From a virus (taxonomy: Duplodnaviria > Caudoviricetes), in IMG/VR virus record IMGVR_UViG_3300009852_000007, positions 1-40,423 of that record: 40,423 nt of DNA. One strand, 5' to 3'. Below, piece by piece: positions 623-40,282 of the stretch (the first letter of the stretch is position 1; every line of letters begins with the position of its first letter). The translations under genes were made by a program, and so were the position numbers. The notes beneath the pieces are model-generated. The model worked only from the letters and a program-made list of their open reading frames with translations. It made no database searches and was not told where the DNA came from.

Positions 623-2216
623 GGCCACCTATTGCACAAACTGCAATTGGGCACCGGGGGTGGAGAGCAACTTCCTTTGGCCTACCCTGGGAGATGTTGC
701 AGCGGATTGGATTGAAGACAACCTAGTCTTAGGTGAAGGTGACTTCTACGGTCAATTAATGGTTCTCAGAGAGGATCAGGTTAACTTTCTCTACCGTTGG
801 TATGAGTACTGTCCAAACTGTGGCTATTGGCACTACGACCGTGCACTGAGACTTGCTGCTACCGGCGACGGGAAGACACAGTTCTTCGCAGCAATCATCG
901 TGTGCGAGTTCGCAGGTCCTAAAGGCATTGCTCCGGAGTCTCCGAACATTCCGGTTGCGGCAGCTTCGTGGGAGCAGGCAGACCTTCTCTTCAAGGCCGT
1001 GTCTGTAATGTGCGGTGGCACTAAGGATGCGCCGGTTCCACAGTCTCCCCTCTATGGGCAGTTCAACGTTCGAGACGCAGAGATTACGTTCGCGGACGGA
1101 CGGCCCGGCAGAGTCTTCAGAACTGCTGCTGTAGCCGGTACCAACGAGGGAGGTTTGCCTTCCCTCTTTGCTTGTGACGAAGTTCATGAGTGGGGCGCTT
1201 TAGGAGATGCAAAAGCACGACGCCATACAGTTATTTCAAAGTCTACTCGTAAACGGAATATCAAAATTCCGGGTACGAATTTAAAACGTGGCCCTGGTCG
1301 TGTAATTAATATCTCAACGGCGGGATTTGATAAGAACAACACAATGCTTGGGAACATGTATATGCATGCTAAGCGTGTGTTGCATGACCCAAGTGTCGAT
1401 CCAAAGTTTCTCGCGGACATTTTCGAAGCGCCGGATGGGCTCGACTATGACAATCCGGAGCATCGCGAGATTGCGGTTAAAGCTGCATCCAAGGGTGCAG
1501 GCATTATTTGGAATGTGAAAGACCGCGTGAACGCGTGGAACGACCCCACGATGGAACATCACGAGTGGATTCGGTACTACGCCAACCGTTGGGTTGACGT
1601 TGCTGAAGACTCGTGGATGAAGGATCACCCACAAGCGTGGGGTAACTGCAAGGGAGAGTGGGTCAGCAGCAAGGACAATCCTTACGTCATCGCTGTAGAC
1701 ATGGCTCTCAAGCACGACAGTGTTGCAGTCGTACTCTGTGAGGTCTTAGAAGACGGCAGAACCGCAGTTACGCCTAAATTCTGGCGTGCTAAGGAGTACG
1801 GCGGCCGAATTCCGCACGCTGATGTGTGGCGCTATGTGAAGAATGAAGCGACTGGGTTAGGTCTCAAGGGTGTTGTCTATGACCCGAGATACTTCGAAGT
1901 TCAAGCCAACCTCTTGGAAGAAGAAGGTATTCCAGTTGTGGAGTTCGACCAGAACCCGCAACGTATGGCACCTGCTTGTGGCCTAACTTACGACAAGATT
2001 CTGAGCAAGCAGATAGTTCATGACGGAGATCCTGACCTTACAAACCACGTACAAGGTGCGTGTCGAGTAGATCAGGAGCGTGGTGGATTCACACTCCGGA
2101 AGTCAAAGTCCAAAGGACATATTGACGGGGCAGTTGCTATGTGTATGGGTACGTGGGTACTCCATGCAATGGACCTGAACCCATATACGACCCTTCACGG
2201 AAAGCTATATGCCTGA
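561..2216 (+). CDS. terL: Terminase large subunit
   Basis: Walker A-like GDGKT, Walker B 'ACDEVHE', ISTAG coupling motif, nuclease 'AVDMALKHD', 'YDP', 'IDGAVA'. Confidence 0.93.
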   Translation: MNAELDKILESPELLEKLKRKATYCTNCNWAPGVESNFLWPTLGDVAADWIEDNLVLGEGDFYGQLMVLREDQVNFLYRWYEYCPNCGYWHYDRALRLAATGDGKTQFFAAIIVCEFAGPKGIAPESPNIPVAAASWEQADLLFKAVSVMCGGTKDAPVPQSPLYGQFNVRDAEITFADGRPGRVFRTAAVAGTNEGGLPSLFACDEVHEWGALGDAKARRHTVISKSTRKRNIKIPGTNLKRGPGRVINISTAGFDKNNTMLGNMYMHAKRVLHDPSVDPKFLADIFEAPDGLDYDNPEHREIAVKAASKGAGIIWNVKDRVNAWNDPTMEHHEWIRYYANRWVDVAEDSWMKDHPQAWGNCKGEWVSSKDNPYVIAVDMALKHDSVAVVLCEVLEDGRTAVTPKFWRAKEYGGRIPHADVWRYVKNEATGLGLKGVVYDPRYFEVQANLLEEEGIPVVEFDQNPQRMAPACGLTYDKILSKQIVHDGDPDLTNHVQGACRVDQERGGFTLRKSKSKGHIDGAVAMCMGTWVLHAMDLNPYTTLHGKLYA

Positions 2217-2425
2217 TGACAACTATGACACAGCGGGTGGAGGGCATCAAAGCTCAAAGTAGGGAGATTAAGTTCCTTCCAACTATGCAGCTTTGGATTG
2301 CCGGTATTGCCTTCGGATCCGCATGGGTAGTCGGAAAAGTATTTAAAGTTTTGTGGGCTTCGCTCACTTTTATTTGGATCGCTTGCGTTCTCGGTTTCAA
2401 GTCGGGAGTTGGGAAAGGGGGGTAA
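2216..2425 (+). CDS. Small membrane protein between terminase and portal
   Basis: ATG overlaps terL TGA; two hydrophobic segments; abuts portal ATG. Confidence 0.6.
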   Translation: MTTMTQRVEGIKAQSREIKFLPTMQLWIAGIAFGSAWVVGKVFKVLWASLTFIWIACVLGFKSGVGKGG

Positions 2426-3799: not shown

Positions 3800-4410
3800 A
3801 TCGGGGTTGCATCCGTGGCTTCGTGGAACGGGGGGTTACAGACGGTGGCCCCATTCGTTTTGTCGCAGCGACGGAAGGCGTAAAACGAGACGGTATCGAT
3901 CTGAGAATGCAGGGGGCACAGCTTGAGAGGTTTCGAGCCAACCCCGTAATTCTCTTCGGTCATGCTTCGTGGGGACGTCAGAACTTACCTATCGGCCGTG
4001 CGGAACACGTGGGGGTGGAAGGCGACTCCCTCGTGATGGATGTCGTCTTCGATCAGGAAGATGAGTTCGCCCGTACTGTCGAGAGGAAGTTACGAGGCGG
4101 GTTCCTCAACGCAGTTTCTATCGGCTTCGAAGTCGATAGTTGGGAAAAGCCGGGGCAGAACTTTTGGAACGGTGGCGTAGCCACTAAGTGGGAGCTTTTT
4201 GAGACTTCCGTTGTTCCAATTCCCATGGACGAAAGAGCGGTTGTCCAAGCTGGTCGCAGTTTCGAGGATGACACTCTGCGTCAGTACATTGATGAGCGTA
4301 TTGAGGATGCGCTTAAGCGGCACTTCGCTAAGAACGATGAGCCGGTCGGTTTTAATCAGTCGGACGCAGACAAGGTGTTGGCGTCATTCAAGTTTGGGGA
4401 GGGAATTTAA
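3796..4410 (+). CDS. HK97-type prohead protease
   Basis: 'NPVILFGH', 'PIGR', 'LNAVSIGF', 'ELFETSVVPIP' motifs. Confidence 0.9.
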   Translation: MNRGCIRGFVERGVTDGGPIRFVAATEGVKRDGIDLRMQGAQLERFRANPVILFGHASWGRQNLPIGRAEHVGVEGDSLVMDVVFDQEDEFARTVERKLRGGFLNAVSIGFEVDSWEKPGQNFWNGGVATKWELFETSVVPIPMDERAVVQAGRSFEDDTLRQYIDERIEDALKRHFAKNDEPVGFNQSDADKVLASFKFGEGI

Positions 4411-5952
4411 ATGAGTGACAACATCACTCTTGACCAGTTAGCTCAGAACATTAAGCAGCGTCTTGACGGTATCTCGGATGACGTTGCTTCGCGTGTCTCC
4501 GATGAGAGACTGTCGCAGCTTATTCGGGACAACCTTGAGGGTGTTCTTGCCGACCCTGAGGTCGTTCGCAAGATTCGATTCGCTCAGGATGAGAACAAGG
4601 GCGAACTGGTCGGTACTAAGTACGCCCGCTGGGGTCTTTCTCCGGCTGACGTTGAGTGGCTGTATGACTTCCAGACCTCGCTTCGCGGTACTCCGAAGCG
4701 TGGGGGTGGAGTGCATCAGGGTCCGTCTGAGGAGCTGTCCAGGACGTTCGAGGCTATTTCCGCCGCGCGCTACGTTTCTATGGACAAGGTTCGCGAGATG
4801 GACCGGCGTGCTCTTGATAACGCTTTCCCTCGTATTCCTCTGTCGGCTTTCCACGCTGGTGACCGTAAGCTTGCTGCCGCTGGAAAGTACGAGCTGACTG
4901 AGGCTTACCAAAACGCTATTCGTGCGATGGACACTGCTGAGTCCGGCTTCGGTCAGCAGTTGGTTGGTGCTCAGTATGTGCACGACCTGTGGGAAGCTCC
5001 CCGTCGTCTCGGTCGTGTTGCGCCGCTGATTAACACGTTCGAGATGTCGGACCCGACGGCTTATCTGCCGGTCGAAAGTTCGCTGCCTGAGCTGAGCTTT
5101 GTTGCCGAGTCTGCGACGTACGACGCTACGAATTACGGCACTACTAAGACCGGTTCGCAGCGAGTGCAGGTCAGTGCAAAGAAGTTTGTGATTCACCAGA
5201 TGTGGTCTGGTGAGATGGAGGAAGACTCCATCATTCCGTTCGTGCCTTTCCTTCGTCGTCAGGCTGCGCTGTCTCTGGCTCATTACCTGGACGCGCTGAT
5301 TCTTAACGGCGACACGACTGGTACTTCGACTGGCAACATCAACCTGGATGACGACACTCCTGTGACTACGAACTACTACCTGGCTTATGACGGTATTCGT
5401 CATGCTGCTTTGGAGGACAACACCAATAATCGTGTGGACTTGAGCGGCCTCGCTTACAGCTATGACGACTTCCTGAATGTTAAGGCCAAGATGGTTGACC
5501 ACGCGTACCTGATGGACTGGGGTCACCCTGTTGACCCTGACGACCTGGTTTACGTGTGTGACCCTGAGTCGGCCGACCGCATTTCGGCTCTGGACGAAGT
5601 TCTGACCGTGGACAAGTATGGTCCTGGTGCGACCGTTCTGAACGGTGAGCTGGCTCGTATTGCCGGTCGCCACCCGCTGATTTCGAGCATTGCTATGCCG
5701 AAGACTGAGGCGGACGGCAAGGTTTCTAAGACGGCTGCTAACAACACGAAGGGTCAGGTTGCCGTCTTTAACCGGCGCGGTCTGGTCATGGGTTGGCGGC
5801 GTCGGGTCATGGTCGAGACGGAGCGTCTGCCCGCTACTGACCAGACTCGCATTGTCTACTCGCTGCGGAACGGCCTTGGCCGGTTCACGCCGACCGGTTC
5901 CGCTTCCGGCATCAAGTGGGCTGCTGTGCTCTACAACGCCGACGTTGCCTGA
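4411..5952 (+). CDS. Major capsid protein (HK97 fold, long N-terminal delta domain)
   Basis: Follows protease; 'FVAES', 'EEDSII', 'LDALILNGD'; strong codon bias; followed by terminator. Confidence 0.9.
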   Translation: MSDNITLDQLAQNIKQRLDGISDDVASRVSDERLSQLIRDNLEGVLADPEVVRKIRFAQDENKGELVGTKYARWGLSPADVEWLYDFQTSLRGTPKRGGGVHQGPSEELSRTFEAISAARYVSMDKVREMDRRALDNAFPRIPLSAFHAGDRKLAAAGKYELTEAYQNAIRAMDTAESGFGQQLVGAQYVHDLWEAPRRLGRVAPLINTFEMSDPTAYLPVESSLPELSFVAESATYDATNYGTTKTGSQRVQVSAKKFVIHQMWSGEMEEDSIIPFVPFLRRQAALSLAHYLDALILNGDTTGTSTGNINLDDDTPVTTNYYLAYDGIRHAALEDNTNNRVDLSGLAYSYDDFLNVKAKMVDHAYLMDWGHPVDPDDLVYVCDPESADRISALDEVLTVDKYGPGATVLNGELARIAGRHPLISSIAMPKTEADGKVSKTAANNTKGQVAVFNRRGLVMGWRRRVMVETERLPATDQTRIVYSLRNGLGRFTPTGSASGIKWAAVLYNADVA

Positions 5953-6696: not shown

Positions 6697-6899
6697 TGGC
6701 TAAGTTTAGGGTTAATCGAGACTTTGCCATGCAACGCGGAGGCGAACAATACGGACCATGGACTTCCGGTGAGGAAGTCGAGATTGAGGAACCTGTCGTT
6801 GTATACATCAACTGGAAATACGGCAATGTCCTCAGTGCTGTCCGTGAGCAGCCTCCCACCCCCAACCGGCAAGTGATGCGTTCCCCCAAGACGCGATAA
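6696..6899 (+). CDS. Hypothetical protein
   Basis: TAATG-coupled small ORF in head region. Confidence 0.55.
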   Translation: MAKFRVNRDFAMQRGGEQYGPWTSGEEVEIEEPVVVYINWKYGNVLSAVREQPPTPNRQVMRSPKTR

Positions 6900-6914: not shown

Positions 6915-7532
6915 ATGCCTGTAACCAACGGCTATTGCACGGTTGAGGAACTAAGGGCATGGATGGGGGATACAGGAACAATCCTCTCTTCAGATGTCCT
7001 TGAGAAGGCTATCAATACCGCATCCCGCGCCATTGATGACTTCTGCGGTGTAGGCCGAAAGTTCTGGCTCGACAACACGCCAATTGCAAGAGACTTCAGA
7101 GTTCGTGAGCCCAACATTGCTTGGGTCTACGACATTGGAGATCTCACAGGGCTGAAGATTGAGACTGATGATGTTGGGGACGGCAGTTTCCTCACTACTT
7201 GGTCTAGCACTGACTACGATCTGAGTCCCTTCCAGGAAGAGACCGACAAGGCTCATACCTGGTATCGAATTCACGCGATTGGGAGACAGTTCCCGGTCAA
7301 CAGCATTCGTAGGACTTTGAGAGTAACGGCCAAGTGGGGGTGGAGTGCCGTCCCTGACCAGATCAAGCAAGCTACGCTTATGAAGGCGAACATTCTCGTT
7401 CTGCGTAAGGACTCGCCTTATGGTGTTGCTGGCTTCTCTGAGTATGGCGTTGTCCGACTGAATCGGTCAGAGGACCCTGAGATCACTCGTCTCATCGCGC
7501 CGTTTGTTCGCTCGAATGTAGTGGCTATCTGA
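6915..7532 (+). CDS. Head-to-tail adaptor
   Basis: 'YCTVEELRA', 'ASRAIDDFCG', 'VTAKWGWSAVPDQIKQAT' actinophage adaptor motifs; GGAGG RBS. Confidence 0.85.
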   Translation: MPVTNGYCTVEELRAWMGDTGTILSSDVLEKAINTASRAIDDFCGVGRKFWLDNTPIARDFRVREPNIAWVYDIGDLTGLKIETDDVGDGSFLTTWSSTDYDLSPFQEETDKAHTWYRIHAIGRQFPVNSIRRTLRVTAKWGWSAVPDQIKQATLMKANILVLRKDSPYGVAGFSEYGVVRLNRSEDPEITRLIAPFVRSNVVAI

Positions 7533-7975: not shown

Positions 7976-8688
7976 GTTCGTTAGTCCTTGTTGATGTAAC
8001 CACATACGTCGGTGAGTTCAATCTCACGACAAAGATGAACTCGCTCAACCTGAACATTCAGGCTGACGAGTTAGATGCTACGACCTTCGGCAACAACGGA
8101 TTCCGAACCCGTGTAGCTGGAATCAAGGATGTCATGGCAGACCTGTCCGGCTACTGGGAGGACGACGTAGATAACGAAGTCTTCGGCAGTCTCGGAGTCG
8201 CACATGATGCTGTGACCATTTCGCCTACGGGGGTGGAAGGCGATACGGCTTACCTGTGGCGGGGTGAGAAGTTCACCTACCAAGCCTTCGGTGCTATCGG
8301 TGCTCTGACGCCTTTCAGCGTGTCCATGAGCGGTTCCCACAACCAGGGGGTAGCCAGAGGCACACTCCTGAAGAAGCAAGGCACTGTGACCTCTACAGGG
8401 GCTACTGGCACAGCCTTCGAGATTTCAGGTGGCATTGGGAGTGACGCTGCTCTCTACTCGCACTTCCACGTCTTTGATGCGGGCACAACTGTTACGGCTG
8501 TAATCGAGTCCGCAGACAATGACGAGTTTGAAGATGCGACAACCATTGCCACGCACAGTGCGTTAACAGCAGTCGGGGCGAACATTCAGCGTGTTGCCGG
8601 TCCAATTACGGATGAGTTCTTCCGTGTGAGAGTTACAGCTATTACAGGCAGCTTTAGTGTTGCTTGTGCGATCGGGGTTGGTGTTTAG
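7972..8688 (+). CDS. Tail tube-like protein with C-terminal extra domain
   Basis: N-terminal half aligns by eye with next gene (ELDATTFG..FRTRVAGIKD vs ELEDTAMG..WRNRLAGLKD). Confidence 0.6.
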   Translation: MSSLVLVDVTTYVGEFNLTTKMNSLNLNIQADELDATTFGNNGFRTRVAGIKDVMADLSGYWEDDVDNEVFGSLGVAHDAVTISPTGVEGDTAYLWRGEKFTYQAFGAIGALTPFSVSMSGSHNQGVARGTLLKKQGTVTSTGATGTAFEISGGIGSDAALYSHFHVFDAGTTVTAVIESADNDEFEDATTIATHSALTAVGANIQRVAGPITDEFFRVRVTAITGSFSVACAIGVGV

Positions 8689-10357: not shown

Positions 10358-12122
10358 CGCAAATCGTAATGTCAGCATTGACATTACCGGCGACACTAGA
10401 GATTTAGAGCAGTCTTACGATCGTGTAGCGCGTAAGTCGGAACAGCTCGCTAACGACGTAGATAAGAACAATAAGAAGATGGGCAGCAGTTTCAGTGACG
10501 CTGCTAAAACTGCTACTTCTAGTTTCGATGACTTTTCCGGAACTGTTACTACGTTCGGCAAGACTGGTCCTATTGCTATCGGCGCGGTCGCTGCCGCCAT
10601 CGCTGCTCTTCCCACGATTATCAATCTTGCGGCGGGTGCTGTAACCCTGGGTTTTGGTGCGGCCTTAGCTGGCATAGGTATTGCGGCTGCTTCTCAGAGC
10701 GCTGTTGTTCGGCAAGAGTTTAAAGACCTATGGGATGGCATCAAGTCGGATCTCTACGACATCTCTGGTCCTATTGAGAAAGCTCTTCTCAATATTCGCG
10801 GATATGCCGAAAGAGCTTTTGAAAACTTCCTGCCTTCTTTGGAGGAAGGCTTCAAGATTATCGGCCCCGCTATTGATAAGTTCGGTGCCGACTTTTCGCG
10901 GGCTCTCTTAGAATTAGAGCCAGCTATTAAGCCGCTTTCGAACGCCTTTGCTGCGCTTCTGAGCGCCATCGGTGAGCGCGCGCCCAATATGTTCCGGAAT
11001 CTTGGTGCGTCCATCGAAAATCTAGCATCGATTGCTGAACGGAATGCTGACGACATTGCTGGGTTCATTGATGGTGTTTTTAGCGCGCTTGAGTGGACCA
11101 CAGCAAGAATGGATGACCTTTCGAGTCTGTGGGATGAAGCTCTAGCCAAGTGGGAAGACGGCTGGAACAGCTTTATTGACAGCTTGAATGGTGGCAATAA
11201 CCCAGCGATTGATGCTTACAAAATCAACATCAGCGACACCACGGATCGATGGAACGCGATGGCGGAGCAGCTTAAGCGAACGGCTGAAGCTGCACGTGAA
11301 GCGCAAGACCCACTGAAGCAACTGAAGCTTGATGTTGATGTTCTGAAAGATGCTATTGACGAACTCAACGGTGTGCATATCGCTTCCGACCGTGCAATGC
11401 TTCAATGGCAACAGACGTTGTGGAGGGCCGTTGAAGCAACCGAGAAGAGCAGCGCTGGTCTGAAGTACAACACCAAAGAGGGCCGCGATAACTGGCAAGC
11501 AGTTCTCGATATGGCGGATGCCGGTAACCGCCTGATTGAGTCGAAGGCCGAAGAAGGCGCGACAGTTAAGGAATTGGCTGTCACCTACAGCCAACTTCAG
11601 ACTGACCTCATGAACGTCATCAAGAACATGGGGGAGAGCGGCGATAAGGCTCGGGAACTTGCTAAGCGCTATCTGGAGATTCCAGACGAGATCCGTACGC
11701 GAGTTGGTCTGGAGACTCTTGAAGCGCAGCGGAAGTTCGATGAATACATCACTTTGAACTCCGGTCGCCAGATTCCGGTGTATCTCATTCAGAAGCAGGA
11801 GATGCCAGCTAAGGACGGTGGCTACTTCGGCTACGCTTCCGGTGGCCCTGTAAAGGGTCCTGGAGGTTCACGGACTGACAGCATTCCAGCCCGCATTAGT
11901 AGGGGAGAGTACGTAGTTAATGCTGCTGCGACTCGTCGCAATCTCCCCCTACTTGAGGCTATCAATAGCGGCAAGGGGGTGGGAGGCATGGGAACCACGA
12001 TCATCTACCAGATCAACACTTCTGTGGCTCCTACTGCGAACTTGTCTGCTATTGGTCAAGAGATTGTCGAGAGCATTCAGGCGTTTGAGAGTCGCAGCGG
12101 TAAGACATGGAGGATGAACTAA
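10350..12122 (+). CDS. Tape measure protein (590 aa)
   Basis: Ala-rich helical protein with hydrophobic segment and C-terminal 'ASGGPVKGPGGSRTDSIPARISRGEYVVNA' motif. Confidence 0.88.
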   Translation: MASANRNVSIDITGDTRDLEQSYDRVARKSEQLANDVDKNNKKMGSSFSDAAKTATSSFDDFSGTVTTFGKTGPIAIGAVAAAIAALPTIINLAAGAVTLGFGAALAGIGIAAASQSAVVRQEFKDLWDGIKSDLYDISGPIEKALLNIRGYAERAFENFLPSLEEGFKIIGPAIDKFGADFSRALLELEPAIKPLSNAFAALLSAIGERAPNMFRNLGASIENLASIAERNADDIAGFIDGVFSALEWTTARMDDLSSLWDEALAKWEDGWNSFIDSLNGGNNPAIDAYKINISDTTDRWNAMAEQLKRTAEAAREAQDPLKQLKLDVDVLKDAIDELNGVHIASDRAMLQWQQTLWRAVEATEKSSAGLKYNTKEGRDNWQAVLDMADAGNRLIESKAEEGATVKELAVTYSQLQTDLMNVIKNMGESGDKARELAKRYLEIPDEIRTRVGLETLEAQRKFDEYITLNSGRQIPVYLIQKQEMPAKDGGYFGYASGGPVKGPGGSRTDSIPARISRGEYVVNAAATRRNLPLLEAINSGKGVGGMGTTIIYQINTSVAPTANLSAIGQEIVESIQAFESRSGKTWRMN

Positions 12123-13342
12123 TGTCTACCGCACCTGAAATCATCGGTGACATCGTTAAGGTTGAAATCCTCTTTGATGGTTCTAATTGGGTTGATGTCA
12201 CCGATGATGTTGTCGCCATTGAAACTCGTCGTGGTGCTAACAGAGTTCAACAGCCGGTTCTTCGTTACACTAACGGAAACGGTTCTATAACGCTGAACAA
12301 CCACCAACGGCAGTATGACCCGACGAATCTTGACGGGCCGTATGTAGATTCCAATGGAGAGACACAGGTTCTTCCGATGCGGCAGATTCGCATTAGAGGA
12401 ACCTATGATAATGAGACGCACGGAATTATGCGTGCTTTCATTGACTCCTGGAATCTCCAGTGGAACGGTCCCAACTGGTCTCAGGCGGTCGTACCGTTCA
12501 CGGACGGTTTCAAGGTTCTGGAGTCTTACGATCGCATCGCGGTTGAAGCGGTTGGTGAAGGAGAGGACTCAGGGGCGCGTATTGAGCGCATCCTGGACTC
12601 TGTGGACTGGCCGAACGATTTGAGAGACATCGCTACCGGCAACACGAATCTCCAGGCAACCACACTGACAGGGTCAGCGTTGACTGAGTGTTTCTTGGTA
12701 GCTGATAGCGAGATCGGAGAGTTCTATGTTGACGGGGACGGGAAGATGGTTTTCCGGAACCGTCACGCACTTCTTCAAGAGGAACGCTCGAACACAGTTC
12801 AGGCTATCTTCGGTGACTCTGGAAATGAACTGCGCTATGCTGACAATGGCCTGACCCTGAATTACGACCACGAGACGTTGGCTAACAGAGTTCAGGTTGC
12901 ACATACGGGTGGAACGCAACAGGTCGCTTATGACGAAGACAGTATTGCTAAGTACTTGACGCGAACCTTCAACCGTACGGACTTGTTACATCAGAATGAT
13001 GCTGAAAGTCTTGCGTACGCTCAATGGGTTCTATTCATTTCAAAACTTCCTGAGCTTCGTTTCGACATCATGCGCATCAATCCGCTCCGTGATCCTGAGA
13101 ATCTATTTCCTCAGGTTCTTGGTAGAGAAATTGGTGACCGTATCCAAATCAAGAGACGTCCGCCGGGTGGAGGAGACCCCATCGTGCGAGATGTCTTCAT
13201 TCGGGGAATCCAGCACAGTATTACCACCTCGCGTTGGACTACGACTTGGGTTCTCCAGTCAGCTACCAAGTACGGTAACTTCTTCGTTCTTGACAGTCCC
13301 ATTTTGGGGCTGCTGAACTCTGACATTGGTATTGGGTACTAA
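12122..13342 (+). CDS. Minor tail / baseplate hub protein
   Basis: 'WVDVTDDV..IETRRG', 'FYVDGDGKMVFRNR', 'IGDRIQI'; follows TMP. Confidence 0.75.
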   Translation: MSTAPEIIGDIVKVEILFDGSNWVDVTDDVVAIETRRGANRVQQPVLRYTNGNGSITLNNHQRQYDPTNLDGPYVDSNGETQVLPMRQIRIRGTYDNETHGIMRAFIDSWNLQWNGPNWSQAVVPFTDGFKVLESYDRIAVEAVGEGEDSGARIERILDSVDWPNDLRDIATGNTNLQATTLTGSALTECFLVADSEIGEFYVDGDGKMVFRNRHALLQEERSNTVQAIFGDSGNELRYADNGLTLNYDHETLANRVQVAHTGGTQQVAYDEDSIAKYLTRTFNRTDLLHQNDAESLAYAQWVLFISKLPELRFDIMRINPLRDPENLFPQVLGREIGDRIQIKRRPPGGGDPIVRDVFIRGIQHSITTSRWTTTWVLQSATKYGNFFVLDSPILGLLNSDIGIGY

Positions 13343-13779
13343 TGGCTTCTGTTCGTTGCAAGCTTTTGTATGCAGGTGACGTTTTCCCCTCACCTACTCG
13401 TATTGTCACGTGGCATGGTTACTTGGAGTTCATTAGTCAATACTACCCACGTGGTGTTCCTAAGCCGACTGGTCACAACCCAGAGAAGAAGGCTCTTGCC
13501 CGGGTTGATGAAGCCCGCTGGGTTGCGGATTGCCCCTGGGGCTGTGGAGCAGCGTTCAACCTCCCGGAGAACGCTCAAGAGTTCTGGTGCACAGAGTGTA
13601 TTGGTGGGGGCTTTGGTCTGACAGCCGCTTTGGTCTGGCCTGAGAACAGGGAGGCTTTGAAGGTGAACCTGGAGTCACTTCCAGCACAGTTGGCGTATTG
13701 GCCATGTCTTCCTTGTCAGCCAAAGGCTCTTGAAAGATTGCCATTATGTGTTGGCTGTTCAACTATGCTTCGGGGGTAG
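13342..13779 (+). CDS. Cys-rich hypothetical protein in tail module
   Basis: CPWGC, CTEC, CLPC, CVGC; TAATG coupling. Confidence 0.6.
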   Translation: MASVRCKLLYAGDVFPSPTRIVTWHGYLEFISQYYPRGVPKPTGHNPEKKALARVDEARWVADCPWGCGAAFNLPENAQEFWCTECIGGGFGLTAALVWPENREALKVNLESLPAQLAYWPCLPCQPKALERLPLCVGCSTMLRG

Positions 13780-26504: not shown

Positions 26505-26600
26505 TTAGTAAGGAAGCTTCTTTCCGCTCGGAGTCCTAAGGTCAATGTCTTTCGAGTCCTTAGGCTTCTTTGGCTTCTTAATCCTGACTTGTTTTGTCAT
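26505..26600 (-). CDS. 31-aa Lys-rich microprotein
   Basis: MTKQVRIKKPKKPKDSKDIDLRTPSGKKLPY; overlaps upstream ORF. Confidence 0.35.
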   Translation of the reverse strand: MTKQVRIKKPKKPKDSKDIDLRTPSGKKLPY

Positions 26601-26727
26601 CGGAATACATCACCAAGCAGATAGCGCACGGGCATTTCTTGCCAGGGTGTTCTTCTTCAATAGTCTTCTTGATCAGCTTCTCAACTTTGCGAACCCCTAG
26701 GGGTATTGCACCAAACACGTCTGACAC
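26578..26727 (-). CDS. 49-aa HPGKxCPCxxC microprotein B
   Basis: GTG with AAGGA RBS; shares motif with upstream microprotein. Confidence 0.5.
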   Translation of the reverse strand: MSDVFGAIPLGVRKVEKLIKKTIEEEHPGKKCPCAICLVMYSDDKTSQD

Positions 26728-26825
26728 GGACAGTCCTTTCCAGGATGGTTAAGCTCAACAGCGTGGTTGTAGAGGATTTCCCACTCTTCAGCATTCAGAT
26801 CCGGATCCGGGCTTTCTTCCGTCAT
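26697..26825 (-). CDS. 42-aa HPGKxCPCxxC microprotein A
   Basis: ATGA coupling to helicase; GGAGG RBS. Confidence 0.55.
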   Translation of the reverse strand: MTEESPDPDLNAEEWEILYNHAVELNHPGKDCPCQTCLVQYP

Positions 26826-28411
26826 GCAGCCTCCATTGCTTGTCGAATTGCTTCACTGTCGATAGTGGCTTTGAAGTCGTTCAATTTGTCCATCCACACA
26901 TCTACTGTCTTAAGAATTGTGGGGATGTGAATGGCAGTCTCTCGGGTCTGTCCAATGCGGTCTAAGCGTGCCCACGATTGTTTGTTCCGGCCTGGACTCC
27001 AGTCCTTGTCCAGAACGATTGCTTGCGTGGCACCTATGAGGTTGAGACCTTCACCCGCTGATCTGTAGTTGCAGAGCACGACGTTCCACAGGGGGTGAGA
27101 AGCATCAGGGTCCTTGAAGTCGTCTCTGATGGCTTCTCGCAGACTTTGAGGGGTGTCCCCGTCATAGACCACTGCGGTTGACCCTAAGCGTCTCTGAAGC
27201 TCTCTCAGAGGCTCTTTGAAGTGACTGAAGACAACTATCCTCTGTCCAGCATCTAGGAACTCCCCAGCAAGGTTCGTAACGAGATCCAGCTTGAAGGACT
27301 TGCGGATAGTCACTCCATCAATGCCAGCGGGCCATACAAGGATCTGACGCAAGCGGAGGAGCTGAACCACAGCTTCCGTGATGCCAACGGTGCCAGATTC
27401 CATGTCCAGTTTGAACTGATTCTCTACACGCTTATAGAGATTCCACTGTTCGGCGTAGTTCTGTTTGTCGAACTCATACTCCCGAGTAATAACTGACTGT
27501 GGAGGAAGAATGATGCCAGCGTCTTTTCTGGTTCGTGCTAGGTAGTAAGGCGCTGTGCGGCGAACAAGTCGCTTCTTTCCGTTTTCAGTCCAGACGTGCT
27601 TTCCTTGAGAGTTAACGTAGCAATGCTCTTTAAGGAAGTAGTTCTTGCTCGTGAGGGTTGGATTCCAAAGACTCTCTAACCAGAACCACTCAATAGGGTT
27701 GTTCTGAACCGGCGTGCCAGTGATTTCGAGAAGGTGCTGAACGCTGCGTGCTTTATCTGGATTGGAAGTGGGGTCACAATAGCAGCTTGGACAGCGAGGG
27801 ATCTTGATCTTCGCTGCAACTTGCCCGCACTTAAAACACCAGCGATTTGAAAATCTCTCGCCCTGTTCAGAACAGTTCTTCCGGTTGCAGGTGTAGAGCG
27901 GTTCTATGAGATGTCCACAGCGAGGGCACTTATTAATGGCGTAGGCCAACTCCCGCAAACCTTTGTACGAGAGCGTCTTGCCATTGTTGATATTGTGAGC
28001 TTCATCGATAACTACAGAATCAAATTGAAGCTTCACAAGATTCGTGATGATGCTGGTGTCTGCCCTCCACCCCTCTAGGTTCAAAAGGCAAATGAAGCTA
28101 TCAAAGTTAGAAATCAAATCAAAGACGGTCTGACGGTCTTCTTTCTTGTGACCGCGTAAATCAATGACCGGTCTATCATCAATCCACTTAGGGATCTCAG
28201 CTTTCAGATTGGACGTGATTTCGTAAGGGGCAGTCAGGAAGGTTCTCTTAGCTCCGATCAACTTCAGCCAAGTGAAGGTAGTACCTCCCTTGCCTAAACC
28301 CATCTCGTCAGCTAGGAGTCCCTTTCCCGACTTAGCGAAATGTTCTGCCCCTTGGATCTGGTGAGGTAAGGGTTCTAACAATGGCTCTCTTATACGTAAG
28401 GGATGTTCCAA
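26822..28411 (-). CDS. SNF2-like (SF2) helicase with Zn-ribbon insertion
   Basis: 'LADEMGLGK', 'DEAH', 'TGTPVQN', 'GEGLNL', 'Q...RLDRIGQ'. Confidence 0.88.
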   Translation of the reverse strand: MEHPLRIREPLLEPLPHQIQGAEHFAKSGKGLLADEMGLGKGGTTFTWLKLIGAKRTFLTAPYEITSNLKAEIPKWIDDRPVIDLRGHKKEDRQTVFDLISNFDSFICLLNLEGWRADTSIITNLVKLQFDSVVIDEAHNINNGKTLSYKGLRELAYAINKCPRCGHLIEPLYTCNRKNCSEQGERFSNRWCFKCGQVAAKIKIPRCPSCYCDPTSNPDKARSVQHLLEITGTPVQNNPIEWFWLESLWNPTLTSKNYFLKEHCYVNSQGKHVWTENGKKRLVRRTAPYYLARTRKDAGIILPPQSVITREYEFDKQNYAEQWNLYKRVENQFKLDMESGTVGITEAVVQLLRLRQILVWPAGIDGVTIRKSFKLDLVTNLAGEFLDAGQRIVVFSHFKEPLRELQRRLGSTAVVYDGDTPQSLREAIRDDFKDPDASHPLWNVVLCNYRSAGEGLNLIGATQAIVLDKDWSPGRNKQSWARLDRIGQTRETAIHIPTILKTVDVWMDKLNDFKATIDSEAIRQAMEAA

Positions 28412-29144: not shown

Positions 29145-29249
29145 TTGAGGGGTGGAATGCTGGTACATCATAACGTGGGGCCAAGAGGAAATCCCCACTC
29201 TGCAACCATGGAGGTACATGGGAACCTCTTTAACATTCCACCCTTTGGC

Positions 29250-30012: not shown

Positions 30013-30070
30013 CGCCACCGGGGGGAGTTGAACCCCCACACGAAGGCTCTACCAATTAAGCTACGGTGGC
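30013..30070 (-). ncRNA. 58-nt tRNA-like RNA lacking the anticodon arm
   Basis: GCCACCG-TA-GCTT-AATTGGTA-GAGC-CTTCGTGT-GGGGG-TTCAACT-CCCCC-CGGTGGC-G. Confidence 0.75.
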
Positions 30071-30212
30071 TGACCACCCCCATTGTTTGCCGCCAATGGG
30101 GGACCTCGCTGTGAACCATGCAGCGAGGGGAAGGCAAGGTTTGTTTCATGGAGGGTGGGAGAAGTTACACCCCGTTCTAGGCTCTCCCTAGACACCATTC
30201 CCTTGCCGTGGA

Positions 30213-31452: not shown

Positions 31453-31492
31453 GAACTCTCCCAACGCCCTCCACCCCCGATGCGGTGGGAGC

Positions 31493-31691
31493 AGAGGGCA
31501 CACAGAGGGCACATGAGCCAGTGAGCGTCTTCGCAGGTCAGTGCAGTTTGCCCACTTTTACATGTGAATTTCCATTTGCGCAGCTAAGCGCCTAGATGAC
31601 CCTGATGAGCTTCTTCATTGCCTGTATCCTCCCTACCTTTAGGTTTGTACCCTGGCAGGGGGTGGAGGGCACAGAGAGGGCACATCAGCCA
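31493..31691. other. Putative attP
   Basis: Gap 3' of integrase with two pairs of direct repeats GAGGGCACA (31494, 31505; 31665, 31676) flanking an AT-rich core near 31551-31578. Confidence 0.65.
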
Positions 31692-32878
31692 TCAATGGCT
31701 CTCCGAAGGGCTTCAGGGTCGGACGGTATGAAATGACAGTACGTGTCGAAAGTGAAGGACGTTCGTTTATGTCCTAGCCACTCTGCCAACGTACGAATGT
31801 CCACGTTGTGATTCAGTACACGCGACGCGAACGTATGCCTGAGTCTGTGGAACGAGTCTTGCCTAGGAAGTCTTTCGATCCCTAGCTTGTCGTGCACTCT
31901 TTCCCAGTGATTGAGAAGAGTTTCGTACGCCCATGGCTTTCCGTAGGTCACAGCGTAGATGCGAACCTTGCGGGGTTTACCGTTCGGCGTTTTCCATGGA
32001 AGCTCCACCGTCTGAGACGGAAGACCTAACAGGAAATTTTTAACGGATGGTGCCAGCGGAACCACCCTAGTTTTCTGACCCTTCGGCAGATCGAATACAT
32101 GGCACTTGAACGTGCGGCTGTACCGAACTTGCCGTTGGATATGAATGACATCGCCGTCTATGTCATCGGGACTGAGACCTCGAATCTCCCCGATGCGTAA
32201 ACCGATACCCGCGCCCGCACGTGGAACGATCCTCAGCGGAGCGGGAAGGTACTCTTCGATAGCCTCTAGCTGTTCCCGTGTGTACGGGATGACCTTCTTA
32301 TCAGGAATACGCGGGAGCTTGATGATTGGGTGTACAGGACGGAGAGGGTTTGCCGGAACCCAGTCTTTGAATCTCGCGTACTCAAGAATCGAAGCCAGAT
32401 AACCCGCGATGATGCGGACTGTTCGAGATGCCAGCTTCGAACTAAGGTCTTTGAGCCAGAGTTGTATGAGATTGGGATCTAGCGCTACATCAGCAGCGAG
32501 CCGGTTCCCAAGCCCATCACACATGATGTGGTTACGAATCCGACTGGAAGCTGTGATGTATGTAGAGTCCTCGAAGTTCTGAAGTCGAAGCCACTCTTCA
32601 CTGACATCACGAATCGTCAGTGTGAGTTTGGGGTCGGGGGGTGGGATGCGTAATGACTCCGCGAAGGCGTCAGCATGGACTTCAGGGTCCTTACCCACCT
32701 TGTACTGAAAGTTCCGTCTCGGCTGATGCCGCTTACCGTTCTCCCAGTACTCCCAGCGAACTTGCCAGCGTTTACCTTTCCCATGTGCGGCGGTCGGGAC
32801 TAAGTTGTGTTCCCTACACCTAGGTGCCCCTGGAGCTGGGTTTGACTTGTGCCAGCGGTCAGTCACATTGACTGCCAT
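31685..32878 (-). CDS. int: Tyrosine integrase
   Basis: 'GLRIGEIRGL', K, 'HRLRHTFAS', 'LGH', 'TY.H' catalytic set. Confidence 0.93.
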   Translation of the reverse strand: MAVNVTDRWHKSNPAPGAPRCREHNLVPTAAHGKGKRWQVRWEYWENGKRHQPRRNFQYKVGKDPEVHADAFAESLRIPPPDPKLTLTIRDVSEEWLRLQNFEDSTYITASSRIRNHIMCDGLGNRLAADVALDPNLIQLWLKDLSSKLASRTVRIIAGYLASILEYARFKDWVPANPLRPVHPIIKLPRIPDKKVIPYTREQLEAIEEYLPAPLRIVPRAGAGIGLRIGEIRGLSPDDIDGDVIHIQRQVRYSRTFKCHVFDLPKGQKTRVVPLAPSVKNFLLGLPSQTVELPWKTPNGKPRKVRIYAVTYGKPWAYETLLNHWERVHDKLGIERLPRQDSFHRLRHTFASRVLNHNVDIRTLAEWLGHKRTSFTFDTYCHFIPSDPEALRRAIDG

Positions 32879-33168: not shown

Positions 33169-33206
33169 GGACGGCCCTTCACCCTCTTTGTTAGACCGTC
33201 TGGCGA

Positions 33207-34238: not shown

Positions 34239-34289
34239 CTGTACGGCCCTGAGAGCGATTCTGACGGCTTCTACCCCCCTCCCGGGTAC
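34239..34289. repeat. ~50-bp dispersed repeat, copy 2
   Basis: Inverted homolog of 15695-15745. Confidence 0.75.
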
Positions 34290-34428: not shown

Positions 34429-36543
34429 TTGACAACTGATGTCATGGCTACCGCAGCTCTTTACTACAGCAAAATTTTAGAGTTGCGGATCTTCCCGCTC
34501 CATGACGTAGCAGACGGTCACTGTTCATGTGCTGAAGGTGAACACTGCTCAAGACCAGGAAAACACCCCCGGCTTGCAGACTGGCAGAAGGAAGCTAGCA
34601 AGCGAGACTCCAAAGTTAAGCGTTGGTGGGAAAAATGGCCGGACGCCAACATCGGAGTCTTGACCGGCAAGGCCAATGGCTTCATTGCACTCGACATTGA
34701 TCCGGCCAACGGGGGGTGGGTGGCATACCATGACCACCTTGCAGGCCACTTGCCGTCCACTTACAGTCCCACAACTGGTAGTGGCGGACAGCATATTTGG
34801 CTGAAGTACCCGAAAGATATACAGGTCACCAACAAGAACAGGTTCCCTAAAGGAATCGATGTTCGCGGTGACGGGGGCTTCGTAGTTGTTGCACCCAGTC
34901 GTACTAACAAGGGTGAATATCCGTGGCCCAACCCAATGTTGGCAAGCATGGATCAACTTGCGGAGTGCCCTCAGTACATCATCGACAAGTATCTAAAGAT
35001 TGAAGACTCAGACGCAGAGTTCGTTAGTGCTAGTGACACAAGTACGTACAACAGTCTGAGCAAAGAAGAGAAGCAGCGGATTGATAAGTATGTAGAGGAA
35101 GCTTTCAACCGAGAACTTGATGCCCTTGAAGACTTGGATGAGTTCTCAGAATGGGACAACGAGACCTTCAAGATTAGTTGTCGCATTCTGGAGCTGGTGA
35201 AAGCTCCGTGGTCTCCGCTGACCTATGAAGAAGCTGTTCGTGCCATCTGGCGTTCAGTACCTAAGCCGGACGGTGCCGGATGGACCGAAGAACGTATCAG
35301 GCAGAAAGTGAGAAGTGCATGGGAAAGGGTGAACAGTCATGATCTCGTACGACCTTTTCCCAAAGTGAAGGAAAAGCCTCCCACCCCCGATACGAGCGGG
35401 AAGCTTATCCTTGTCCCCTTCTCCGACATGGAGTCGGAACCCTACGAGTGGTACGAGAAGAACCACATCCCACGTAGGGGAGTTGTGATCCTTGCCGGGG
35501 AACCAGGAACCGGCAAGTCCACACTGGTCTGTCACTACCTTGCTCAGGCTACCAACGGTACATGGAGAAGGGGAGGCATTGGGACATGTCTCTACTTGGC
35601 CGGTACCGAAGACTCACTGAAGGACATCATCAAGCCCCGGCTGATTGCAGCGAAGGCAGATGTATCAAAGATCTTCACTGTAGAAGTACAAGAGCACGAT
35701 GAGGATGATGAAGCCTACAACCGCAAGGCAGTCTTCAATCGTGACATGCTTGCTCTTCGCAAGGTGGTCCGGGAACACAACGTCAAGATGATCGCAATGG
35801 ACCCGGCGAACACATTCCTGGGGATTGACGAAGAGAAGCATAGTTATAGTGAAATCCGGTCAACACTCGAAAAGGTTCTTCGCTTCGCTGATGAGGAAGA
35901 TTGCCTCATTGTTCTCATCAAGCACTTCCGAAAGAACCAGTCTTCTGGAATTAAGTTGGATGCTATGTCCCGACTGTTTGGAAGCGCTGCTTGGGGGGAG
36001 GTGGTACGCCATATGCTTGTTCTGCGAAGAGTTGATGACGAGATTAGAGATAGGAAGGCGCTGGACATTGATGATCCCGTCTCAGCGATCCTCAGTGTGG
36101 AGAAAAACTCGTATGGACCTACGGCTGCTACTGGACTCTACCCCCTCGGATTCTCAAGAGAACCCGTAAAGGTCAGCACTGGCAAACTGAAGGATGTAGA
36201 AATTGCACGGCTCGTGTGTTTGGGTGAGAGGCGAGATCTTACCGACCTTGACACCGTAGCCGTGATGACCGACGAACAAGTTGATAAACGCATCAAGGAT
36301 GAGGATGCGGCTAAGGAATGGCTGATTGAAACTCTCCAGGCCGAAGGCGGTCGTATGGAGATTACCAAGCTGAAGGACATCCATAAGAAGGATGAGCGTT
36401 CTGGAGTTAGTTGGAGAACGCTTATGAGGAAAGCAGATCAGCTTGGGATTATTAGCCAGCCTATTGAGGGGGCGGGAAAGAATAGGAAGGAATGGGTATT
36501 GCCTCCTGAACTGATGCCCCCGCCTGAAGAATTGAAGATGTAA
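34429..36543 (+). CDS. Bifunctional primase/polymerase (Prim-Pol) fused to AAA_25 RecA-like helicase
   Basis: 'CSC...C..PGKHP', 'WW..WPDANIG', 'LDID', 'TGSGG.H', 'GIDVRG.GGFVVVAPS'; 'GEPGTGKS', 'MDP', 'HFRK', 'GSAAW'. Confidence 0.9.
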   Translation: MTTDVMATAALYYSKILELRIFPLHDVADGHCSCAEGEHCSRPGKHPRLADWQKEASKRDSKVKRWWEKWPDANIGVLTGKANGFIALDIDPANGGWVAYHDHLAGHLPSTYSPTTGSGGQHIWLKYPKDIQVTNKNRFPKGIDVRGDGGFVVVAPSRTNKGEYPWPNPMLASMDQLAECPQYIIDKYLKIEDSDAEFVSASDTSTYNSLSKEEKQRIDKYVEEAFNRELDALEDLDEFSEWDNETFKISCRILELVKAPWSPLTYEEAVRAIWRSVPKPDGAGWTEERIRQKVRSAWERVNSHDLVRPFPKVKEKPPTPDTSGKLILVPFSDMESEPYEWYEKNHIPRRGVVILAGEPGTGKSTLVCHYLAQATNGTWRRGGIGTCLYLAGTEDSLKDIIKPRLIAAKADVSKIFTVEVQEHDEDDEAYNRKAVFNRDMLALRKVVREHNVKMIAMDPANTFLGIDEEKHSYSEIRSTLEKVLRFADEEDCLIVLIKHFRKNQSSGIKLDAMSRLFGSAAWGEVVRHMLVLRRVDDEIRDRKALDIDDPVSAILSVEKNSYGPTAATGLYPLGFSREPVKVSTGKLKDVEIARLVCLGERRDLTDLDTVAVMTDEQVDKRIKDEDAAKEWLIETLQAEGGRMEITKLKDIHKKDERSGVSWRTLMRKADQLGIISQPIEGAGKNRKEWVLPPELMPPPEELKM

Positions 36544-37309: not shown

Positions 37310-37557
37310 GTTGTGACAACGCGATCATGAATATCAACATGTGGATCATGGGGGAGGGGGGGTGTGTGGGAGACGTGTCACAACTTCACAACTGGCTCTG
37401 ACCTGCGGTTTTAGTTGTGACACGGTGTCACAACTGGGCAGTTGTGACAAACCCAGTTGTGACAGTTGTGACACACTCTAATGATCTTGTCACAACTGTT
37501 TTAGCAGGTCAGAGCCAGTTGTGAAGTTGTGACAAGATCCTTCTTCCCCCCCCCCCC
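37310..37557. repeat. Iteron-rich palindrome, probable replication origin
   Basis: Nine GTTGTGACA copies in both orientations; perfect 31-bp inverted repeat 37376-37406/37504-37534; flanking G and C tracts. Confidence 0.75.
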
Positions 37558-37812
37558 TGTGTCCCAACTGGCGTACTGGCCGGTAACTAAAATAGTTAGG
37601 TGTCCGGCTTAGACTGTGCAGGTTCTAAGGAAGTGAAGAAGTCTTGTAGCTAGAGGACTACGGGACGCAGGTCCAGACCGGGGCTGGAAGGCATGAAGGT
37701 GCAGGTCACAGGGCTATACCAGATCCATAACGATGGGGTAACATAGAGGCAGGGCAGGACCCGAGAGAGCTTGACAACCTAGCCCCCATGGCCTCTGACC
37801 TGGGGGAACGTC

Positions 37813-38564: not shown

Positions 38565-38566
38565 CC

Positions 38567-40282
38567 ATGGCTACGCTAGTAGCTAGTTACGGTGACGACA
38601 GTGGCGGAGGATTTAGTAGTAGTCCTTTACAGACTTCCAGCTTCACTCCTGTACAAGGCGAACTTTTAGTCGTCAAGGCAGCAAGTTGGAGTGAGTTCGC
38701 ACTCTTGAACACTCCTACGGGAGGCGGACTTACTTATGTCGAGAGGATTAACAGCGCACCTTCGAATAACTGTTTCACTGCTATCTGGACGGCTGAAGTA
38801 ACCGGCAGTCCAGGAAGTATGACCGTCTCATGTACGTTGAATGGATCATCTGGCTACTACGCCTTCGTAGTGGAGAGGTGGTCTCAAGCAAAGCTTGCTA
38901 GTTCTCCTGTTCTTCTGTCTACAGGTGGAAGTGGTGCACCTAACGTCAACTTCACCACTACTGCTGCTAATAGCAGGATCTCCATAGTTAATGGCGACTA
39001 TAACGGGCAGAGCGGTACTGCTACCTACAGAGGAACTAGCACTCAAACCTTCACGTACCGATCAAACGGCAACTTCGGTTACTACGGTTGGTACCAGACT
39101 GTTGCCACTGCCAGCACTGTAGCTGTTGGCATGACTGCACCTAGCAGTCAGAAGTGGCGACTAGCAGCTATCGAGATCTTAGATAACTCTGCGATTGAGC
39201 AAGATGTTGATTCAGTCAAAGAGTCCGATGTTGCGCTTTCAGTTAGCCGGGGCAAGCGCAAAGTCTTAGGTCTCGTTACAGGGCTTAGTGCACTTCTAGG
39301 CTTAAGCAAAGTCAAGAGTCATGAAGTGCACGTTGCAGAACAAGCTAGCGCACTCTCGGTTGGTAAAGATAAAACACACGGTGTCGGTGCCATCCACGGG
39401 CAAGAGAGTGCGCTAGCCACAACTAAGAAGAAGTCTCGCCTCCTGGGGGTGGAGGGCGAGATGAGTGAGACGTACGGGTTGGACAGTGAGAAAACTCGTA
39501 CGTTGGGGTTGGTGCAAGGTCTCGATAGTGTCTTGGACTTTCAGAGTTCAAAATCCCTGGGAGTCGGGTTAGTTGAAGAATCTGCACTAGTCCAAGCACT
39601 ATCGAGATCGAAAGCGGTGAGTGTTGATCTTGTCACGGAAACGGGAACAGCGCTCACGACCGGCCGGACCAAGCGAGCCGCTGTAGGCCACGTAGAGGGG
39701 CTGTCAGCGGTCGCCGGTACGGGAAGGTCTAAGGGGCTCGGGATCGGACCTCTCGGGGGCTCTCAGACGCTCTACAAACTCTTGAGTGCAAAATCTAAGT
39801 TGCTCAAGATAGCGGCTGAAGAAGATGCACTTGAGAAGTTAGGAGTCGATAAGACTCTACTTCTAGGTGTTGTTGCTGAGATTGACTTAGCTGTTGGTTT
39901 CGGCGGAACACTTGGGATAGTCAGTGAAGTCAGTAGTGCGTATGTGTTACGTGTAGCGAAAGCTAGAACTCTAGGTACTGCTGACGAAGAGGGGGTTTTA
40001 AGAAACCTAGCCAAGGCCAAATCACTGGCGTTAGGTTCAGTGACAGAAGAGGGCACTTCTAGAAATTTGGTCGTTTCCAAATTACTGGAAATCGGCAAAT
40101 TACTGGAAACCAATTCACTGGAAATGCTGGTTTCCAAAAAGGGCAAATTACTGGAAATGCTGGTCGAGAAATCACTGGTAAAAACTATAAATCCTAATCA
40201 GCAAAATATCGATAGAACTGGTCCTCTTACTGACATCGCTAGTCTGAGGATGTCTGGCATGAATAGGTACGGACGCTCTTAA
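38567..40282 (+). CDS. Putative fibre/appendage protein: Ser/Thr/Gly-rich N-domain plus ~20-aa repeat stalk
   Basis: Periodic 'K..LG.V.E....L...K' units over the C-terminal ~350 aa. Confidence 0.6.
   Translation: MATLVASYGDDSGGGFSSSPLQTSSFTPVQGELLVVKAASWSEFALLNTPTGGGLTYVERINSAPSNNCFTAIWTAEVTGSPGSMTVSCTLNGSSGYYAFVVERWSQAKLASSPVLLSTGGSGAPNVNFTTTAANSRISIVNGDYNGQSGTATYRGTSTQTFTYRSNGNFGYYGWYQTVATASTVAVGMTAPSSQKWRLAAIEILDNSAIEQDVDSVKESDVALSVSRGKRKVLGLVTGLSALLGLSKVKSHEVHVAEQASALSVGKDKTHGVGAIHGQESALATTKKKSRLLGVEGEMSETYGLDSEKTRTLGLVQGLDSVLDFQSSKSLGVGLVEESALVQALSRSKAVSVDLVTETGTALTTGRTKRAAVGHVEGLSAVAGTGRSKGLGIGPLGGSQTLYKLLSAKSKLLKIAAEEDALEKLGVDKTLLLGVVAEIDLAVGFGGTLGIVSEVSSAYVLRVAKARTLGTADEEGVLRNLAKAKSLALGSVTEEGTSRNLVVSKLLEIGKLLETNSLEMLVSKKGKLLEMLVEKSLVKTINPNQQNIDRTGPLTDIASLRMSGMNRYGRS

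Follow-up and report, generated by a model that had tools for sequence, protein, structure and literature searches.

IMG/VR virus record IMGVR_UViG_3300009852_000007 (40,423 bp; hereafter the window, on which all coordinates are given) carries a 13-bp asymmetric word, GGGGGTGGNNNGC, scattered over its whole length, and here we consider what might read it. The window begins with rightward terminase-to-tail and lysis genes, continues with a leftward arm (WhiB, PolA, SSB, Sak4-like, exonuclease, ParB-like, SNF2 and integrase genes) and ends with rightward genes for a primase-polymerase (Prim-Pol) joined to an AAA_25 helicase, an HNH protein and two structural proteins. No close cultured phage was found (megablast; terminase identity 24-26%). 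A 357,914-bp contig of Nonomuraea sp. NPDC050451 encodes homologs of both SNF2 and Prim-Pol (71% in each case), which makes Nonomuraea or its kin the probable host; a prophage search of 401 GTDB genomes and an integrase search of viral contigs gave no match.

The proposed reader of the word is the Prim-Pol, which matches PF09250 (E 4e-36; catalytic motifs DID88, H122 and D144) and has helices at residues 204-302 and, beyond the helicase, a further C-terminal helical domain. Its structural model (mean predicted local distance difference test, pLDDT, 69.8) matches the pRN1 primase structures 9aam and 3m1m (Foldseek, E~1e-7, ~355 columns), and PHROGs and Pfam scans detected no TOPRIM primase among the open reading frames (ORFs) of the window. 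A cluster of TGTCACAAC repeats, a candidate origin, starts about 0.8 kb past the Prim-Pol gene; NrS-1 has a comparable repeat cluster directly after its primase gene.

A dispersed word under selection

The window contains 23 exact copies of GGGGGTGGNNNGC (16 on the plus and 7 on the minus strand; Table 1), all at the coordinates and on the strands that the initial annotation had given, and in 23/23 the octamer GGGGGTGG, with its GT(G) core, is followed by NNNGC. Chance was rightly expected to supply well under one copy: the expectation is 0.08 from 100 dinucleotide shuffles (maximum 2) and 0.06-0.17 from Markov models of order 1-4, and 300 synonymous-codon shuffles retained a mean of 3.7 copies (maximum 6); 3 of these are non-coding copies that the shuffle leaves unchanged, and about 0.7 remain within genes. 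Six one-mismatch copies noticed earlier are present, together with four more (13772+, 24957-, 35997+ and 37680+), and no one-mismatch copy, in the window or in its sister phage, alters T6. The spacer is purine-rich, with A or G at position 9 in 22/23 exact copies. Once degenerate copies are included, the consensus is GGGGGTGGRRGGC and the number of copies about 36; a position weight matrix (PWM) at a score of at least 12 finds 36 sites in the window versus about 1 in Markov nulls. The genome-wide word is a real, confirmed observation.

Table 1. Copies of the word, the proposed reader and associated features in the window
Feature	Position	Strand	Remarks
exact copy	656..668	+	terminase large subunit; sister copy 3 nt off aligned place
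exact copy	4011..4023	+	prohead protease; conserved in sister
exact copy	4702..4714	+	major capsid; lost in sister
exact copy	6851..6863	-	small head gene, antisense
exact copy	7336..7348	+	head-tail adaptor; lost in sister
exact copy	8229..8241	+	tail tube gene; conserved in sister
exact copy	11975..11987	+	tape measure; conserved in sister
exact copy	14740..14752	-	endolysin, antisense; conserved in sister
exact copy	15388..15400	+	endolysin; conserved in sister
exact copy	16208..16220	+	intergenic, holin-GntR
exact copy	17120..17132	-	WhiB
exact copy	18641..18653	+	DNA polymerase A, antisense; conserved in sister
exact copy	20382..20394	+	upstream of likely polA start
exact copy	22718..22730	+	Sak4-like gene, antisense; conserved in sister
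exact copy	23768..23780	-	exonuclease; lost in sister
exact copy	24933..24945	+	small gene
exact copy	30069..30081	-	intergenic; spacer TCA, the weakest
exact copy	31466..31478	-	adjoins putative attP
exact copy	31658..31670	+	overlaps integrase-arm-like repeat
exact copy	32637..32649	+	integrase, antisense
exact copy	34712..34724	+	Prim-Pol gene
exact copy	35376..35388	-	Prim-Pol gene, antisense
exact copy	39445..39457	+	last gene
degenerate copy	2233..2245	+	PWM 19.4; conserved in sister
degenerate copy	12905..12917	+	PWM 13.8
degenerate copy	13772..13784	+	PWM 17.2
degenerate copy	17722..17734	+	PWM 15.9
degenerate copy	19849..19861	-	PWM 19.0; conserved in sister
degenerate copy	24957..24969	-	PWM 16.0
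degenerate copy	27091..27103	+	PWM 16.7
degenerate copy	28062..28074	-	PWM 19.4
degenerate copy	29148..29160	+	PWM 16.3; intergenic
degenerate copy	33174..33186	-	PWM 13.1; intergenic
degenerate copy	34266..34278	-	PWM 14.1; intergenic
degenerate copy	36133..36145	-	PWM 12.1
degenerate copy	37680..37692	+	PWM 18.8; intergenic
proposed reader: Prim-Pol, helical middle domain (residues ~204-302), AAA_25 helicase	34429..36543	+	PF09250, zinc knuckle
DNA polymerase A	18585..20276	-	likely primer extender
SSB, Sak4-like, PD-(D/E)XK exonuclease, ParB-like, SNF2	21518..28411	-	module common with relatives; rival readers
9 TGTCACAAC repeats, both orientations, inside 47-nt inverted repeat	37310..37534	.	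candidate origin with iterons

The sister phage, G003, is a 30.7-kb contig with 63% nucleotide identity to the window over aligned genes, and it has 8 exact copies and 26 PWM sites. Of the 17 window sites that can be aligned, 9 are in the same place in the sister, 1 is shifted by 3 nt and 7 are missing there; the sister also has sites that the window lacks. At 4-fold degenerate positions inside the motif the two phages are identical in 23/32 cases, compared with 0.35 elsewhere (P=2e-5), which bears out the earlier suggestion that selection acts on the DNA itself. Because the 4-fold sites of the motif are held while positions differ between window and sister, the DNA word is under selection and its individual sites turn over. 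A tendency to form a hairpin with the 5' flank in the window (P<0.005) was not repeated in the sister.

Spacing is also non-random. Pooled gaps are more even than random in the window (coefficient of variation, CV, 0.63, P=0.002) and in the sister (CV 0.64, P=0.015), with P=0.09 for exact copies alone, and the plus-strand sites are regular both in the window (23 sites, CV 0.44 versus 0.94 at random, P=1e-4, mean gap 1.76 kb) and in the sister (15 sites, CV 0.45, P=0.001); these tests used sites picked by the PWM threshold. Placement on the two strands is mutually independent, and in relatives 14/76 strand sets are regular at P<0.05. Around the candidate origin, the polarity that sites on lagging templates would show is weak and not significant (13+:3- versus 10+:10-, P=0.08), and it is absent in the sister (7:5 versus 8:6). 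Two copies of a 47-nt non-coding element, oppositely oriented and 77% alike, lie after the endolysin gene (15699-15745) and before the Prim-Pol gene (34239-34285), and the latter copy contains a degenerate copy of the word.

Most sites lie within genes (18/23 exact copies, in several reading frames as had been reported, and 27/36 PWM sites), where the sense:antisense ratio is 17:10 (P=0.25), and the 16:7 strand count, although correct, is not a significant bias (P=0.09). These figures bear on the proposal of a repressor roadblock, in which a monomeric immunity repressor (GntR, WhiB or a helix-turn-helix protein not recognised as such) would use the copies in the manner of stoperators to block prophage transcription. 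Like the stoperators of cluster A, the word is a 13-bp asymmetric site with more than 20 copies (20-40) in a temperate actinophage; an integrase is present and no classical repressor is annotated, GntR is 58% conserved in the sister, and there is a mild intergenic excess (9/36, P=0.02). However, stoperators occupy promoters and short intergenic spaces and are oriented with transcription, according to the available portion of PMC9283540, whereas the window's word is mostly genic and shows no such orientation. In addition, lytic podoviruses such as Adat have comparable words, and G649, a genome with a window-type word that is described below, has no GntR or WhiB match. PHROGs and Pfam scans of 62 ORFs gave no cluster A repressor match, no direct search for such a repressor having been made. 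We regard this proposal as very unlikely.

The proposal of a host factor, under which the phage would have copied Chi, KOPS or the site of a host protein, draws on the likeness of GGGGGTGG to Chi-type octamers. Yet five actinomycete genomes have about 5-11 copies per Mb, which is near the control level, against about 570 per Mb in the window; GGGGGTGGAAGGC has 0-5 copies in each of 21 further genomes (the true host's own is not among these 26, and G010, one of the five, is marked unpublished); and related phages of one host type have different words. The chance that a host signal was copied is accordingly remote.

Words of related phages and the genes that accompany them

A GenBank search with the SNF2 gene found only 11 records (Arthrobacter cluster AV, Cellulosimicrobium DS1 and Microbacterium Shocker), and each SNF2 relative examined has a dispersed word of its own and lacks those of the others: CTGTGGG occurs 44 times in Adat and 47 times in Jasmine, CTGTCGC 47 times in DS1, and CTGTAAAG in 38 bins in Shocker. 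In a set of 50 genomes (44 from IMG/VR, the longer ones of 79 SNF2 loci, plus four cultured phages, the window and the sister), 38 fall into word classes (CTGTAG 12, CTGTCG 14, CTGTGG 8, CTGTAA 2 and CCTGGGTG 2) and two more have the window's word, and the words are roughly equally distributed over both strands. All share GT (GT-AG, GT-CG, GT-GG, GT-AAAG and GT-GGRRGGC), and the bases that follow look like uncopied specificity bases. Among control loci with only the capsid or a distant Prim-Pol in common, 1/58 has a word at p<=1e-8, and among 80 loci of major capsid relatives only L001, L002, L003 and L005 are word-rich, four others having one copy. A literature search, which left most subscription papers outside its scope, found no description of these dispersed words; the main text of PMC5513430 has zero occurrences of 'motif', and no motif for Triscuit appears in the 12 of 22 passages of PMC7302621 that were available, supplements aside.

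A profile made from 8 genomes for the RepB'-like catalytic domain matches 39/50 genomes of the set, and a CTGT word is enriched in 39/39 of these (36 at p<=1e-5); among the 11 genomes without the domain, 2 reach p<=1e-5, both of them 67-68% fragments. Four genomes that are rated complete and have kept SNF2 lack the word: G608 and G627, in which a helicase is kept with a degenerate helix bundle while the catalytic domain is missing, and G605 and G648, which have a different Prim-Pol. The exonuclease of G605 falls inside the CTGTCG clade (99/99), yet this genome has 11 copies of CTGTCGG versus 39-57 in two neighbours. G619 has a third form of primase and the word CCCTGGGTG. Moreover, cultured or GenBank phages chosen by primase match alone, two of which infect gammaproteobacteria, have a dispersed top word in 4/4 cases (CCTGTAGG; GTGTGG, 62 copies in Serbin with 22.6 expected and 90 in Lebethron with 23 expected; GGTGTGG, 42 in Triscuit with 5.9 expected). 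When the word classes of nearest neighbours were compared, no gene stood out (concordance 0.61-0.87 across 26 families), and no alignment column accounts for all three word classes. In these relatives the primase is favoured because the presence or absence of the word follows it, where the neighbour and covariation tests did not decide.

Two further observations concern these primases. No PolA or primase catalytic domain was found in G608 and G627 (L204-L206, L256-L258), in which the helix bundle is acidic, and these phages may borrow the host primase and polymerase. The profiles for the RepB'-like primase and the helix bundle also match Serbin gp54 and Triscuit gp94 (L313 and L316), whose annotation is DNA recombinase.

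The window's Prim-Pol is of the PF09250 type, unlike the RepB'-like primase of the AV-like relatives, and its profile found 68 loci of at least 10 kb, among which only G649 has dispersed GGGTGGGCAGC. In G649, GGGTGGNNNGC has 20 copies (9+ and 11-), and GGGTGGRNNGC occurs 19 times versus 2.2 expected. This genome shares only Prim-Pol, ParB-like, phrog_18067 and one structural gene with the window, and it has no match to SNF2, exonuclease, PolA, RuvC, Sak4, SSB or g49. Seven further loci match the middle-domain profile of the window clade, five of them being the nearest catalytic-domain kin of G649, and a GGGTG word at p<=1e-7 is present in 3/7 of these genomes versus 0/46 and 0/62 controls.

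The recombination genes provide another possible reader. In this case the word would be a Chi-like stop or loading signal for the exonuclease and Sak4-like annealase, or for SNF2, at which the nuclease pauses and recombination-dependent replication starts. Every word-bearing AV-like phage has the recombination module, and in the exonuclease tree the window and its sister group with G619 and G620 (both with CCCTGGGTG) and G604 (97/99). The exonuclease column just after the last Cys, in the tail of the protein, is K/R in 12/12 CTGTCG genomes and N/S/L in 19/19 CTGTAG or CTGTGG genomes, the cleanest of 5,983; in separate clades it changes with the choice of C or a purine in the word, which a primase reader does not explain. 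However, error-free splits also occur in four columns of four different proteins, the exonuclease is present without a word in G604, G605, G627 and G648, and G649 combines a window-type word with no match to the exonuclease, SNF2 or Sak4; a recombination signal is unlikely in our judgement. As a separate matter, the SNF2 helicase (26822-28411) has a Cys-rich zinc-finger-like insertion, which Adat lacks and of which DS1 and Shocker have a shorter form.

The word could also be the site of a double-strand coating or partition protein (the ParB-like DGQHR protein, the coiled-coil g49 or the small phrog_18067) that organises or shields the genome. It is orientation-independent and evenly spread; the window, G649, G619 and G620, which all carry GGGTG words, each have a ParB-like gene; the window, the sister and G649 have phrog_18067 genes; and g49 combines a coiled coil with a small C-terminal domain, the Adat gene at the matching place being annotated as Lsr2-like. 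On the other hand, the site is asymmetric, unlike parS, and the ParB-like gene was not found in the sister's contig. Its closest homolog (54%) is in G604, which has the ParB-like gene, g49 and two phrog_18067 genes and no word (no primase is on its contig), and 71/72 ParB-like loci lack the window's word, G649 being the other. A double-strand coat, moreover, would not be expected to produce per-strand regularity with independent strands, and we consider such a coat improbable. The 30519-31238 protein, which had also been named as a candidate reader, is present in the wordless G604 and was not found in G649 or Shocker.

With 10 close and 85 distant homologs, g49 was rejected as the reader on its distribution, and its model (pLDDT 79.5; predicted template-modelling score, pTM, 0.35) has no fold match in the PDB. 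The 30519-31238 protein is early and coiled-coil and clusters with the Adat Lsr2-like gene and a DS1 homolog; its family shares the N-terminal part and has an interchangeable C-terminal domain, and it is possibly a counter-silencer or nucleoid protein.

Candidate priming at the word

We propose, with a probability of roughly 0.6, that the word is the template start site for the phage's own Prim-Pol/helicase; primer synthesis there is a candidate function deduced from the genomes themselves. The initial annotation had envisaged a dispersed code that is read by a protein and selected as DNA; the selection is borne out, and the word looks like such a code. Among its options, a signal at which the Prim-Pol primes has the strongest support, and the roadblock, ParB-like, 30519-31238 and host-factor ones were not supported.

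In the proposed mechanism, the sites would be written on both strands about every 1.8-2.4 kb, because both strands would serve as lagging or displaced templates. The helicase would open the DNA and the helical domain bind single strand at GT-GGRRGGC; the primer would start with A opposite the invariant T6 and continue 5'-ACCCC across the G-run; the 3' bases would be read and not copied, like those of RepB' and T7; and the phage PolA would extend the primer. Selection against long unprimed gaps would then keep the sites regular on each strand and allow their turnover.

Characterised primases offer partial parallels. The available parts of PMC8718748 describe recognition of GTG by ORF904 of pRN1 and of GTGG/GTGA plus the 8-mer TTTGGTTA by the NrS-1 polymerase, via the helix bundle. 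The window's reader likewise has a PF09250 domain and a pRN1-like fold, and its word has an asymmetric GTGG core that need not be intergenic; it differs in that its word has ten fixed bases with a gap and about 36 evenly spaced genic copies, and in that its helicase is AAA_25/RepA-like and not of superfamily 3. For RepB', the accessible sections of PMC8567376 place the start of synthesis at the T of GTG, with dATP as the first nucleotide. The ssiA/ssiB sites of RSF1010 RepB' are likewise long, specific priming signals, and a RepB'-like domain, weakly matching PF16793/PF09250, occurs in the AV-like relatives; unlike here, where many short sites occur, RSF1010 has one 40-nt hairpin site per strand at oriV. 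For T7, the excerpt of PMC2910064 available reports that pppAC is made at GTC with G/T upstream, e.g. GGGTC. The T7 gp4 sites, (G/T)(G/T)GTC, share with the present words a GT core, a G/T-only 5' side (GGGGGT here, GGTGT in Triscuit), one or more uncopied 3' bases and genome-wide dispersal, and differ in their TOPRIM primase and 5-nt length.

The same Prim-Pol/helicase might instead recognise the word in double-stranded form, the copies then serving as scattered sites for loading or restart and not as primer starts. The co-occurrence evidence points to the Prim-Pol gene and not to which of its activities is concerned, and a C-terminal helical domain follows the helicase; but a separate iteron-like cluster lies at 37310-37534 and the GT core fits single-strand priming sites, so that this variant is highly unlikely.

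A number of results weigh against the word being a primer start site. The window's word is missing from 67/68 of the loci found by the window's Prim-Pol profile, and the Prim-Pols of G605 and G648 are accompanied by no long word. G649 was selected for its word, its middle domain has no score against the window profile and other catalytic domains are closer to the window's than its own, while two of the three word-positive kin genomes (G650/G656) look like near-copies. Since the sister's primase gene is off its contig, reader and word are seen together once in the window's own clade. The genomes are kin to one another, so that Fisher values overstate independence; the best covariation between residue and word is in the exonuclease and not the primase; and exonuclease, Sak4-like, PolA and helicase genes accompany the primase in the four primase-picked phages, which, sharing this wider module, cannot separate the primase from it. 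Regularity on the minus strand is not significant (P=0.30 in the window, 0.12 in the sister). Finally, ten fixed bases exceed the characterised dispersed primase sites, and NrS-1, tried as a positive control, showed no dispersal, its 8-mer occurring once, in a clustered array.

Neighbouring features and significance

Several other features of the window are worth recording. The copies at 31466(-) and 31658(+) do flank integrase-arm-like repeats, as had been noted, and the attP there is putative: paired GAGGGCACA repeats (31487-31520 and 31658-31691), downstream of the tyrosine integrase gene, resemble attP arm-type sites, and an attB was not found. The products of 22836-23105 and 28727-29137, with weak matches below Pfam cut-offs to the RNA polymerase alpha and ribosomal L7/L12 C-terminal domains, are possible host mimics, judging by these matches. 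The palindromes GCCGGC, CAGCTG, CTCGAG and GAGCTC are absent from the window (7-16 expected), and the sister has 42 GCCGGC; these counts suggest that the sister phages are under differing restriction pressure. A tRNA-Leu(TAA) at 28582-28655 reads the TTA codon, which is rare in actinomycetes.

The sequence specificity of primase-polymerases has so far been known for few enzymes, found one by one. What is new here is an unusually long gapped word together with a loss-and-swap comparison that reaches cultured phages: dozens of genomes pair primase sequences with candidate sites, natural losses and swaps included, among them the cultured Adat, Jasmine, Shocker and Triscuit, and some records label the primase a RecA-like recombinase. 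Such pairs make it possible to test the recognition code of the helix bundle directly. More tentatively, many phages of about 40-60 kb may have a private, evolvable 'priming code', a word of 7-13 bases read by a helix-bundle primase. If so, the word would be found in both strands of genes at Okazaki-like spacing, would change when the primase is swapped and would vanish when it is lost; ten fixed bases would mean that phage DNA is primed about 50-100 times more densely than that of the host, a self/non-self device; and primase specificity would be readable from genome sequence alone. Such a code would place a replication constraint on codon choice, long site-specific primases would be useful tools, and dispersed repeats of actinophages should not necessarily be taken for repressor sites.

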